From assembly GCA_963745835.1 (NCBI GenBank), contig CAVUZH010000014.1, positions 566,756 through 630,755 of the forward strand: a DNA stretch of 64,000 bases. The letters are read 5' to 3'. Source of the stretch: an uncultured delta proteobacterium. Its GTDB lineage: Bacteria > Desulfobacterota > Binatia > UBA9968. The position numbers and the translations under genes are program-made. Shown here in pieces: positions 18,003 to 21,374 of this stretch; the first letter of the stretch is position 1; every line of letters begins with the position of its first letter. The notes under the pieces were generated by a model. It ran no database searches. It saw nothing but the letters and a program-made list of their open reading frames with translations, and had not been told where the DNA came from.

Positions 18003-18050
18003 GAGTTGCCCGAGCAAAATCCAGCTTCAATCGAAATAGAGGAGCACTTC

Positions 18051-19082
18051 ATGAAAGCTTATTTAGTCGTTGACGCCGATGGACACGTCGAAGAATCATC
18101 GAAAGGACTGCAAAAATATTTAAAGCCGGAAAATCGCGGCCGCCCGCTCTGGACCAGCGACTCCTGGGATCGCAATTTCGGCGGCGCCCTTGGCAAGGTC
18201 AATGAAGACCCTCGTGTGCAACTCGAAGACATGGACGCCGACGGCATCGATGTCCAGGTGGTCTACCCGACGCGCGGAATTTCACTTAGCGCGGCGAGAG
18301 AAGTGGATTTGGCGGTGGATCTCGCCCGCGCGTACAACGATTGGCTGGCCGATTTCTGTTCGGTCAATCCCGCGCGGCTCAAAGGGGTCGCGCTGGTTGC
18401 GCTCCAGGACGTAAACGCCGCTATCGCGGAGGCGCGCCGCGCAGTCGAACAACTGGGCTTCATCGGTGTGATGATGCCGACCAATGTGCTCGATCAGGAT
18501 ATCGGCCACAAACAATTCTGGCCGTTTTACGAAGAGGTCGAGAGACTCGGGGTTGGCCTCGGATTTCACGGCGGCATTCGCGCTTCGCAACGAATGCACG
18601 GCCGATTCGGCAGCTTCATTGCGGTCCATACATTGGCGTTTCCCCTCGAGTGCATGGTCGCTCTTACCGGGATGATTTATGCCGGCGTGCCGGAGCTCTT
18701 CCCGAAGCTGCGAGTCGCCGCTCTGGAAGCGAGCTGTGGGTGGGTTCCGTTCCTGATGGACCGGATGGACGAGGAGTTTGAAAAACGCGGCAGCAGAGAA
18801 GCGCCCCTACTCAAGGCAAAACCGAGCGAGTACATGACCAACGGCCAATTCTACTATGCGTTTGAACTGGAAGAATCGACCTTGCCCTATGTTGCCGAGC
18901 GAGTAGGATCCGACAAATTGCTCTACTCGTCGGATTACCCTCATTGGGATACGTCATGGCCCAACACCGTGCGCACTGTAAGAGAACGGGATGATATTAC
19001 CGAAGCGCAAAAGAAACAATTTTTATCAGACAATGTTCAGAGCTTTTACGGCTTCACAGCAAAGGCATCGAACTCCGTATAG
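18051..19082 (+). CDS. amidohydrolase_2 family metallo-hydrolase/decarboxylase
   Basis: VVDADGHV, AYNDWLADFC, LEASCGWVP and SSDYPHWD. GAGGAG RBS. Confidence 0.92.
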   Translation: MKAYLVVDADGHVEESSKGLQKYLKPENRGRPLWTSDSWDRNFGGALGKVNEDPRVQLEDMDADGIDVQVVYPTRGISLSAAREVDLAVDLARAYNDWLADFCSVNPARLKGVALVALQDVNAAIAEARRAVEQLGFIGVMMPTNVLDQDIGHKQFWPFYEEVERLGVGLGFHGGIRASQRMHGRFGSFIAVHTLAFPLECMVALTGMIYAGVPELFPKLRVAALEASCGWVPFLMDRMDEEFEKRGSREAPLLKAKPSEYMTNGQFYYAFELEESTLPYVAERVGSDKLLYSSDYPHWDTSWPNTVRTVRERDDITEAQKKQFLSDNVQSFYGFTAKASNSV

Positions 19083-19147
19083 CGGTGTATCAAACGATAG
19101 CAACAAACGGCCGGTGACCGCCGATTTCTCTTAAGCTTTTCATGCCT

Positions 19148-20269
19148 CTAAGCCCAGAGAACGGCTGCAGTTTTGGTAACTAGCTCCAGTTTACTCCGTT
19201 GGTTCTCAAGTGAAATATTGTTGCCGACGATCGAGGAGGCAAAGCCGCACTGTGGACTGATAGCCAAACGTTCTAGCGGAACATATCGAGTCGCTTCAGT
19301 CACCTTCTCTGTTAGTGACGCCAACGACTCGAGCTCAGGATTCTTCGTTGTGATCAAGCCGAGAACTATGATCTTGTCTTCAGGCACTTCTCTGAGGGCC
19401 TCAAACGAGCCCGAGCGCTCGTCGTCATATTCCAAGAGCAAGCGCTGTGGCTTTAGCTTGCGAAACAATTCGCCGCTGATAGCTTCATATCCTCCCTGCG
19501 ACAGCCAACGGCTGCCTTGGTTGCCGCGTCAGACGTGAAACCCGAAAGTCACATCGCCAAATCCGTCCACCACCGCGTTGTCCAGCTCGATGCCTAAAGA
19601 GAGCCACTGGTTAAGACTCCAGCCAAGGTTTTCGTAGAAGGCTCGCGTTTTGGCATCGAGCAAGAGGCCATAATGCGGCGCGTCGATTTGAATGTAAGTG
19701 GCGCCGAGGCGCACGAGTTCGGCAACCTCCTCGCGCAGGATGCTGACGATGTCGGCGAGAAACGCATCGAGTGTGGGATACGCCGTTCGCGAATATTTTG
19801 GCGACCAAAAATTGGCCCATAGTGTCGGGCTCGGAATGGTCACTTTGGGAATTCGGCTGGTCTTTTTCTTAAGGTAGGAAAATTCATCGGCTGAGAGATA
19901 TCGACGACGGCTCAACTTTTCGACCACACCCAACTTATCTGGCCGCGGGTGACGATGCACACCCAGTGAGTCGTACCAGTCGCCCCAAAGAAAAGCATCA
20001 AGCCCGAACGCACCGAAACCGTCGACCGCTGCCGTCATTTGACTCTGAAACGATTGCCGCCGCATCTCGCCATCGGTAACAATCTCCAATCCGGCATTTT
20101 CTTGCAAGGCAATCGCCTCGTCGACGGCGTGATCCTCGATTTCCTTAAATTGCACCGTGCTGAGAGTGCCGGCGGCGAGTTGTTTTTGCGCGGCAACCAA
20201 CTCCGCAGGTCGCAGAAGACTTCCCACCACATCGGCATGAACCCTAACAGGCTGCTGAAAAAGACCCAT
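19148..20269 (-). CDS. cobalamin-independent methionine synthase II family protein with in-frame TGA (candidate selenocysteine) at the Zn-ligand Cys
   Basis: ORFs 19529-20287 and 19148-19468 share a frame. The joined protein has ADVVGSLLRP, TDGEMRR, YIQIDAP, HV-TGA-RGN, LLEYDDERSG and SPQCGF. Confidence 0.9.
19500..19516 (-). promoter_or_regulatory. candidate bacterial SECIS hairpin
   Basis: GGCAGCC-GTT-GGCTGTC starts 12 nt after the TGA (19531-19529), with a G-first apical loop. Confidence 0.65.
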
Positions 20270-20300
20270 AGGGTTCGTTGCGTTCAATCGTCTCGCTCAA
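20244..20300. repeat. partial MITE-like element overlapping the 5' end of the MetE-II gene
   Basis: TAACAGGCTGCTGAAAAAGACCCATAGGGTTCGTTGCGTTC is the reverse-complement end of the 61000-61156 element. Confidence 0.75.
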
Positions 20301-20385
20301 TCCGTGTTCGTGATACGCGTGTTCGTGTTCGCTCGGAATTCTCGATCACGTTTTCACGCACACGAGCACGATCGTCCGGTGTCTT

Positions 20386-21374
20386 TCACGGCCGAATTTT
20401 ATACTTTCGCTCGATCTCTTCGACATAGCCGCTTTTGACTACCTTTTCGAGAATGCGCTGATCGAGAAGATCCTCGACGTTGTATTTCGCTATTTTGGGA
20501 TCACGCAGCGCGACGATCTCCTGCACGGTTTTCAAGCCTTTGACCGTCACAAAGGTATACGACGTCAGATCATCGAGGAGAAGCTTGTATCCTGTTTCTG
20601 CGAGTTGCCTGTCTGTCTTGATATGTTTCTGCAGAACGGCGACACCCTTTTCTTTCTGAGCGCGCATAACCGCACTCGCTTCTATCATCGCTTTAATAAA
20701 GTTCTCAACCGTCTGAGGATTTTTTTGAATGAAAGACTCCGCGCTCATATAAGGGCTGGAAGGAAGAGCGATCCGGCTCAAATCTAGCAGCACTTTGACC
20801 CCTAGGCCTTGGAGCCGCACCGATTGCAATTTATCCAAAGCGGCTCCGTCGATAATCCCGTTGCCAGAGCTTGGGCGATCACAGTGCTATCGCCAATCGC
20901 CTGGATACTGATGTTATCCCTCTGAGGATCCAATCCCATTTCTCTCAGCGACAACATAGTAAGGCTCCAGAGAAGCCCGCTGAAATCCTGTACGCCGACT
21001 TTTTTACCTCTCAGGTCGCGCGGATTGGTAATCGAAGGCGATACCAAAAAATCGTAGGACGCTCTTTCGGCGAACAGTGACAAGAGAATTTTGAGCTTCG
21101 CCCCCTGCGCCGCGGCGGAAAGCATACTCGACGCGCTGCCACGGACAAACTGCACCTCATTAGAGACCAGAGCCGAAACTTGCAGAGGCGCGCTGCGGAC
21201 GGTGACAAGATCCGCCTCCAATCCATGCTTGGCAAAGATTCCTTCGTCCTTGGCAAGCCAGAGAGGAGTCCCCGCCGCAGCCACACCGGAGTACGCAACT
21301 CTGATGGACTCGGCCTGAAGCGGTGAAGCAAACAGAACCACAGCTATAATGATCGAGAATGTTTTGGCAAGCAT
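20386..21374 (-). CDS. NMT1/SsuA-type substrate-binding protein (frameshift near 20850)
   Basis: LWLAKDEGIFAKHGLE and DLRGKKVGV. The C-terminal half is in ORF 20386-20838. Confidence 0.87.

Follow-up and report, generated by a model that had tools for sequence, protein, structure and literature searches.

Does the single in-frame TGA of a methionine synthase-like gene end a protein, or does it encode a selenocysteine (Sec) at a position predicted to bind zinc? The question is raised by a gene on the minus strand of a 64,000-nt stretch of DNA (hereafter the window, meaning that whole stretch) from an uncultured delta proteobacterium of the Binatia lineage UBA9968 (GenBank assembly GCA_963745835.1, contig CAVUZH010000014.1, positions 566,756 to 630,755). 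The codon stands in the context TTT CAC GTC TGA CGC GGC AAC (FHV-TGA-RGN), and standard open reading frame (ORF) calling breaks the gene into a pair of minus-strand ORFs, 19529-20287 and 19148-19468, which lie in one frame because their starts are 819 nt apart. Translation of 19148-20269 with TGA read as Sec (U) yields 373 residues, with U247 as the sole recoded codon and a terminal TAG. A preliminary description, made from the sequence alone, had pointed to the common frame, the single TGA (19531-19529), a hairpin 12 nt downstream and the splitting of the gene by gene callers, and all of these are borne out by the sequence and the ORF positions. The analysis presented here indicates that the gene is most likely a genuine bacterial selenoprotein of the short MetE-like family, with Sec at UGA codon 247.

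The TGA recurs in relatives of this organism. Among the matches listed from 61 related genomes, each of 31 matches in 30 genomes (61-100% identity) contains a single TGA, and the paralogue matches (≤45% identity) contain none among those listed, bar two odd cases; inspection of 20 relatives' loci and of 8 more placed the TGA in the shared column every time. Among species-representative genomes, 27 loci were found, of which 25 span the site, with TGA in 23 and TGC in two (L050 and L056). Their titles are mostly those of "Candidatus Binatia" or "Deltaproteobacteria" metagenome-assembled genomes (MAGs), and the other-phylum labels on some MAG contigs are taken as given. A scan of metagenomes added 80 loci, 79 spanning the site, of which 13 have TGA and 66 have TGC or TGT. 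The best full-length database proteins (62-75% identity) carry Cys at the site in 120 of 120 cases. This genome also encodes five more full-length MetE-like paralogues (L008-L012, on contigs C18, C14, C20, C9 and C19; 39-42% identical), all five with TGC at the aligned codon; paralogues reach up to 10 matches per genome in relatives, with 5-10 per genome in the Binatia. Distinct Sec-form orthologue sequences with TGA number 44. These comparisons show the TGA to be conserved at codon 247 and to alternate with Cys only, and the TGA/TGY alternation among homologues that had been put forward as a test is seen at exactly this codon.

Confirmation of the TGA in sequencing data had also been advised. 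Contigs from three DNA studies (runs X1, X5 and X10) bridge the site, as does one RNA-library contig (X15) that may be DNA carry-over, and positions 19529-19531 are free of changes among the differences listed for these contigs; coverage gaps occur at 19276-19407 in X5 and at 19936-20023 in several runs. A paralogue in the relative G021 (L061, C157:7778-10908, 40% identical) was considered as a second Sec family and rejected, as its TGA lies elsewhere (PVVE-TGA-LRLT) and its zinc-ligand codon is TGT; a nonsense mutation or an error is the probable source of the TGA at this non-ligand position. A TAG-bearing paralogue in the relative G016 showed no motif in the stretch inspected.

In nearly all orthologous loci, a further 126 codons follow the TGA before the frame closes. 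The segment RGNQGSRWL that directly follows the TGA is invariant, and the nearest in-frame start is found 20 codons further downstream. The motifs LLEYDDERSG and SPQCGF are both present in this part of the conceptual product, and the median ratio of nonsynonymous to synonymous substitution rates (dN/dS) is 0.116 downstream of the TGA versus 0.096 upstream (630 pairs, 36 sequences). The downstream half is thus intact, as first described, with no relaxation of selection, and these values show purifying selection acting on the region after the TGA up to the normal end of the frame. The terminal stop is itself TGA in 10 of 32 unique Sec-form genes, so that TGA has two meanings inside one gene; the window gene contains eight TGG codons, one TGC and the one TGA. 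Judged from these sequences, the TGA at codon 247 is a case of context-dependent recoding and not of an altered genetic code.

A FastTree phylogeny of 131 proteins contains a well-supported orthologue group of 90 rows, 47 of them Sec and 43 Cys. The main Sec clade comprises 44 rows with three nested Cys forms, and a second, mixed group has the Sec forms L054/L055, L058, L076, L077 and L092 among Cys forms. At least seven changes between the Sec and Cys states are needed on the 131-row tree, five of them forced by starred branches. The Cys form of this orthologue group is widespread, and the Sec form appears to be a lineage-specific variant whose carriers are for the most part MAGs with the label Binatia or Deltaproteobacteria; Sec and Cys have been swapped several times. 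In a 401-genome sample of the phylum, an orthologue at E ≤ 1e-95 was present only in this genome (G000) and in G015.

The TGA is followed by a 12-nt spacer, CGCGGCAACCAA, and then by the hairpin GGCAGCC-GTT-GGCTGTC, a candidate selenocysteine insertion sequence (SECIS). The consensus structure predicted by RNAalifold has a 7-bp stem, a 3-nt loop and two further pairs below an internal loop, and helix 1 of the extended element is 100% paired (CG 22 / UG 10 and CG 32). Folding energies are -9.5 kcal/mol for the hairpin alone and -12.6 kcal/mol for the extended element. Over 33 Sec-form sequences, 97.6% of 288 cells are paired, compared to 30.9-71.2% when the partners are slid. Pair 27:39 joins the wobble bases of a Gly codon and a Leu codon and is CG in 25 sequences, AU in two, GC in two and GU in one. 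Where Ser is changed to Ala, a by-eye reading of the alignment suggests that a one-base bulge shifts the register and the stem pairs anew. Synonymous diversity has its gene-wide minimum in the 10 codons past the TGA (0.47 versus a mean of 0.78). The definition of a bacterial SECIS (bSECIS) in the legend to Fig. 2 of PMC13188914 calls for a loop of 3-9 nt, a stem of 4-16 bp, a G in the first two loop positions, a UGA-to-loop distance of 16-37 nt and a minimum free energy ≤ -7.5 kcal/mol. Compared to this by hand, the element lies within the range in all four respects, with a 3-nt loop (GUU or GGU; G then G/U), a 7-bp stem, a UGA-to-loop distance of 19 nt and -9.5 kcal/mol. A search of Rfam over 19100-20300 returned nothing relevant, only one chance snoRNA match (E 3.5).

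Sec and Cys forms differ in the loop and in the basal pairs of the stem. A GpU loop is present in 44 of 44 Sec forms (GGU 39, GUU 5) and in 8 of 31 Cys forms, whose 31 distinct segments have the loops GCU (21), GUU (5), GGU (3) and GAU (2). All seven stem pairs are formed in 34/44 Sec forms versus 9/31 Cys forms, the difference lying in the basal pairs. The association of the loop motif with Sec (Fisher 6.6e-13) is a raw one between sequences that are not phylogenetically independent. The hairpin fits a SECIS, and its loop motif is suggestive of selection at the RNA level, short of proof.

The host has the genes needed for Sec insertion. Its genome carries selA, selB and selD head to tail (C22:65710-70161) and a tRNA-Sec on C13, and its selD is itself a TGA-containing selenoprotein gene. 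Both of its Sec-type fdhA copies have the UGA followed by 12 nt, a 6-bp GC stem and the loop GGUCU; this spacing and the GGU-starting loop resemble the element of the MetE-like gene. The selD hairpin has a GUU loop and is set further downstream of its TGA. The paralogues, selA and selB of this genome have no in-frame TGA. SelA is present in 58 of 61 relatives, in 27 of the 30 TGA-bearing genomes (G000 included) and in all three Sec-form genomes labelled Gammaproteobacteria, Methylomirabilis and Acidobacteria, a co-occurrence that is not discriminating because nearly every genome of the order has SelA. In the proposed mechanism, SelB with Sec-tRNA(Sec) would bind the hairpin 12 nt downstream and insert Sec at the UGA, as at the host's own fdhA genes. 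The Cys form L050 had seemed to sit in a SelA-less genome, a case that was set aside because a SelD fragment lies at the very start of one of that genome's contigs and the sel cluster is probably just unassembled. One Sec-type fdhA of this genome (L143, C18:417030-419831) has an extra in-frame TGA (KTNQ-TGA-EGRV) upstream of the canonical QARL-U-HSSS.

The protein matches the PF01717 (Meth_synt_2) profile over residues 14-345 (E 1.6e-18), with 67.5 bits against a cut-off of 21 and thus above the gathering score. TIGR01371, the model of the two-domain MetE of ~750 residues, gives 44.4 bits against a cut-off of 929.95 and aligns over model positions 431-623 only, and a Pfam search of the 373-residue protein found no match to Meth_synt_1, the N-terminal folate-binding domain. 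The best solved relative is PDB 1ypx (residues 8-372 versus 5-365, E 1.7e-45). An AlphaFold2 model built on an 18-row alignment (pLDDT, the predicted local distance difference test, 83.7; pTM, the predicted template modelling score, 0.87) retrieved 1ypx (E 2.6e-20, TM 0.86 on the target) and MetE structures in a Foldseek search, confirming the fold. By profile and predicted structure, the window gene is a member of the short ("core", single-domain) MetE-like family, whose database name is "cobalamin-independent methionine synthase II family".

In E. coli MetE, the zinc ligands are listed as H641, C643, E665 and C726 and the homocysteine-binding residues as S433, E484 and D599 (PMC7857596). H245-x-U247 and C341 of the window protein align with the HxC and the last Cys of MetE and of 1ypx and are invariant in alignment A3 (Table 1). 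Glu280 was taken as the Glu ligand because it is invariant, ends the strand 276-280 of the AlphaFold2 model and lies 61 residues before Cys341, which is the spacing of E665 and C726; the assignment is an indirect one, the HMMER alignment to MetE having a shifted gap at this point. In C. albicans MetE, the counterparts of S17, E68 and D196 are the GS, GE and D-x-P motifs, and A3 shows no variation at these three positions either. From these alignments we infer that Sec247 is a zinc ligand in a predicted site with His245, Glu280 and Cys341, and that the window protein may synthesize methionine. The replacement of a zinc-ligand Cys by Sec, as originally proposed, agrees with the alignment of the residue to the HxC ligand of MetE, and comparison also supports the ~373-aa selenoenzyme, with selenium insertion, zinc binding and methionine formation as its inferred properties. 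In the proposed site, the four residues would bind the catalytic zinc at the C-terminal ends of the barrel strands, and the thiol activated by the zinc for the transfer of an alkyl or methyl group would be that of an amino acid resembling homocysteine. Such a substrate is proposed because the three homocysteine-binding residues (Ser17, Glu68 and Asp196) are conserved; use of 5-methyl-tetrahydropteroyl-triglutamate in the manner of MetE is unlikely because the N-terminal folate-binding domain is absent.

Table 1. Features of the MetE-like gene, in window coordinates
Feature	Position	Strand	Remarks
MetE-like coding sequence, complete	19148..20269	-	373 residues; ATG 20269-20267, TAG 19150-19148; one TGA read through
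In-frame TGA, codon 247, proposed Sec codon	19529..19531	-	Cys position of the HxC zinc-ligand motif
His245 codon	19535..19537	-	aligned to the His zinc ligand H641 of E. coli MetE (3pph and 1ypx alignments); invariant in alignment A3
Glu280 codon (LLLEYDD)	19430..19432	-	proposed Glu zinc ligand; invariant in A3
Cys341 codon (SPQCGF)	19247..19249	-	aligned to the final Cys zinc ligand
SECIS-like hairpin	19500..19516	-	7-bp stem (19516-19510 with 19506-19500), 3-nt loop GUU (19509-19507), 12 nt past the TGA
Extended SECIS (putative)	19494..19520	-	two extra pairs (columns 21-22 with 46-47 of alignments A1/A2) under an internal loop

Several observations weigh against this picture of the gene as a selenoprotein of the MetE-like family. 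The closest named NCBIfam models score the window protein under their cut-offs (PRK06520, 239.9 bits versus 313; PRK06233, 224.5 versus 576). The start codon and first seven codons of the window copy lie inside a dispersed repeat, and a clear ribosome-binding site was not seen. As a single sequence, a 71-nt segment folds at -23.6 kcal/mol versus -20.97 ± 2.9 kcal/mol for its shuffles (z -0.91; 37 of 200 shuffles equal or better), which is no better than chance, so the meaning of the hairpin was judged by comparison of sequences. The inner four to five pairs of the hairpin are made by the S-R-W-L codons, which are kept in Cys forms too, so the hairpin alone is not diagnostic; the mean folding energy is alike in Sec and Cys forms (-15.8 against -16.7 kcal/mol), and a change on both sides is seen at one stem pair only, the other pairs being one-sided or invariant. 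The link between Sec and the loop is phylogenetically confounded: the three to four independent Sec/Cys pairs give no power, GpU being as expected in ~1.8 of them and the reverse never seen, and full stem pairing does not follow Sec in these pairs. In addition, selA, selB and selD were not found in the TGA-bearing MAGs G007 (96% complete), G015 (100%) and G032 (86%). One missing contig could explain such MAGs, because selA, selB and selD form one cluster in G000. The checks suggested in the preliminary description, where they could be run, gave results in its favour, with two refinements. The hairpin is kept among Sec forms, with one covarying pair and a Sec-specific loop, but its core is shared with Cys forms; the Sec machinery (selA, selB, selD and tRNA-Sec) is present in the host, but for three TGA-bearing genomes of the 30 none of selA, selB and selD was found.

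The TGA could instead stem from a nonsense mutation or from faulty sequencing or assembly. The gene would then be a pseudogene, or a split gene whose product is a fragment of 246 residues, alone or alongside a C-terminal piece made separately. The two ORFs of standard calling would suit such a gene, as would the plain look of the nonsense codon at another site of the G021 paralogue and the fact that the best full-length database protein is a Cys form only 75% identical, though contigs with 79-89% identical orthologues are public. This last gap suggests that the Sec forms are not called whole by gene callers. An error or lost gene does not account for an identical TGA in 44 distinct Sec-form sequences from many assemblies and in the contigs of three DNA studies, nor for a dN/dS of 0.116 over the 126 open codons; the invariant RGNQGSRWL falls in the 20-codon interval that separates the TGA from the next start, and in the AlphaFold2 model a 246-residue product would be without two zinc ligands and three barrel strands. 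The comparative data contradict this explanation, which retains hardly any probability. Alternatively, the UGA may be read through without Sec insertion: a near-cognate Trp or Cys tRNA or Cys-tRNA(Sec) could decode it, or TGA could be reassigned throughout the lineage. The three TGA-bearing MAGs that show no selABD would fit with this, as would a hairpin core accounted for by protein coding. Such decoding sits poorly with the 10/32 Sec-form genes that end on TGA, with the gene's eight Trp codons, all TGG, and with the absence of in-frame TGA from the paralogues, selA and selB; alternation with Cys only is the classic Sec/Cys pattern, and the G[G/U] loop of 44/44 Sec forms is found at the same spacing as in the host's fdhA. 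Read-through of this kind is highly improbable.

A further alternative accepts the insertion of Sec but assigns it a different part, as a reactive nucleophile (an Se-alkyl-Sec relay) or a guard against oxidation and not, or not only, a spectator zinc ligand, in an enzyme that may be no methionine synthase. This would be in keeping with the lack of a folate-binding domain, with the 5-10 paralogues per Binatia genome, which suggest varied substrates, and with the existence of a solved structure that is, by its title, of oxidized T. maritima MetE (1xr2). It is also in keeping with the gene neighbourhoods: no corrinoid-protein gene was seen beside the MetE-like gene in those inspected and no MesX gene near it, and the conserved neighbours in the main Sec clade, which code for an isochorismatase-family hydrolase, a TauE/SafE permease and a PEMT/ICMT-like methyltransferase, include no methionine gene. 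A search for MesX by its profile (PF08908) gave no match in G000, and the controls likewise gave no match in any genome. On the other side, all four zinc-ligand and all three homocysteine-binding positions are retained, and Cys forms, which presumably perform the same chemistry, are common in the same orthologue group. A role of this sort for Sec is unlikely, and the same low likelihood applies to a version in which Sec247, in a core MetE with neither folate domain nor corrinoid partner, would take a methyl or alkyl group from a poor donor as Se-methyl-Sec and pass it to the zinc-activated thiol.

The gene neighbourhood of the window copy differs from the one usual in the main Sec clade. Its neighbours are a convergent Amidohydro_2 gene (18006-19082) and an NMT1-like binding-protein gene on either side. 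That clade shows conserved synteny, with an isochorismatase-family gene (18 loci), a TauE/SafE permease gene in convergent orientation (27 loci) and a PEMT/ICMT-like methyltransferase gene (14 loci) as the usual neighbours of the Sec gene (e.g., L018:2612-3475, with 26 other Sec-form loci; L038:3138-3920; L044:3818-4354). None of these three is present inside the window, and the window copy and its nearest relatives have moved to a different neighbourhood. An apparent aromatic-amino-acid-lyase neighbour in 18 loci was rejected as an artefact of overlapping spurious ORFs, since tblastn finds the lyase in three Cys loci only. The NMT1-like gene at 20386-21374 on the minus strand is split into the ORFs 20802-21374 and 20386-20838, which overlap in different frames. 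In the close relative L016 both parts lie in a single frame and the gap is one base longer, which points to a frameshift of 1 nt or a misassembly of the window sequence here.

The dispersed repeat at the start of the MetE-like gene is ~57 nt long (20244-20300), with ~59 copies in the genome on both strands that are 85-97% identical. It supplies the ATG and first seven codons (MGLFQQP) of the window gene; orthologues begin M-I-T-x-HADVVGS. The depth of metagenome contigs spikes over this repeat, up to ~3966 in run X5 (20244-20287), and a second repeat (~20316-20371) at times lies beside it. In L016/L035, an 87%-identical orthologue, the usual ATG-ATC-ACA start region lacks one base relative to L015, which places the ATG out of frame; this reflects either an assembly error or a different start.

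Of the proteins with a solved structure, 1ypx of Listeria ([quoted passage not shown]; PRK06520/PRK06233 type) is the best match. It is of the same length, single-domain, alignable from end to end and of the same fold, and both proteins have the HxC(R/K)GN, LEYD and SPQCGF motifs; 1ypx and the 120 database relatives have Cys at the HxC motif, whereas the window gene has TGA. To our knowledge, no biochemical function has been established for this short MetE-like subgroup. The MetE proteins of E. coli, T. maritima, C. albicans and A. thaliana share the catalytic (beta/alpha)8 domain, and their zinc and homocysteine residues, where described, correspond to H245, U247, E280 and C341 and to S17, E68 and D196; they differ in an interval of 22 residues from HxC to Glu, as opposed to 33 in the window protein, where Sec stands for the first Cys. 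The core methionine synthases MesA-MesD, homologues of MetE with a single domain, are described as retaining the residues for zinc and homocysteine and as drawing methyl groups from sources other than methyl-folate (Price et al. 2021, PMC7857596). The window protein resembles them in its single domain and in the residues kept, but its match to the MesD structure 3rpd is weak (E 6e-8, versus 1.7e-45 for 1ypx), and none of the four is described with Sec in that account.

Sec at metal or metalloid sites has been cataloged for FdhA (Mo/W), [NiFeSe] hydrogenase, arsenite methyltransferase, the predicted SaoB/SaoC and HgcA (PMC13188914). As presented there, these systems resemble the window gene in having Sec in place of a metal-binding Cys, a UGA with a downstream SECIS inside the coding sequence, and Cys homologues. 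The metals of those systems are redox-active or soft and toxic, whereas the predicted partner here is a catalytic Zn(II) in a non-redox alkyl-transfer enzyme. The preliminary description did not place the family among the classical selenoproteins, and neither PF01717 nor a MetE-like name is found among the 119 prokaryotic selenoprotein families and subfamilies in Table 1 of Zhang et al. (May 2026, PMC13188914). The main texts of BSepDB (PMC13326102) and deep-Sep (PMC12013277) mention no methionine synthase, MetE or PF01717, although their supplementary family lists may hold more, and literature searches found no report naming a MetE-family selenoprotein. On present comparisons, this is very probably a new selenoprotein family. 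The gene is probably called as two fragments or as a pseudogene in dozens of public MAGs, and hence missed by annotation pipelines.

Among the bacterial selenoproteins known so far, the majority either catalyse redox reactions or bind a metal that is redox-active or toxic. If the reading proposed here is true, a zinc ligand that is Sec in an enzyme transferring methyl or alkyl groups would bring selenium into Lewis-acid zinc catalysis, and bioinorganic chemistry would gain a Zn-selenolate site from nature, along with matching natural Cys forms for comparison. Were Sec247 to act as a relay, the enzyme would perform a cofactor-free group transfer at the first natural Zn-Se catalytic centre in a non-redox enzyme, which would explain the switching between Sec and Cys in several lineages. 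The gene also bears on the origin of SECIS elements, as the S-R-W-L codons already form most of the hairpin and few changes (the loop G/U and the basal pairs) may suffice for a switch from Cys to Sec. The carriers of this gene, the Binatia, are abundant bacteria of soil and rhizosphere.

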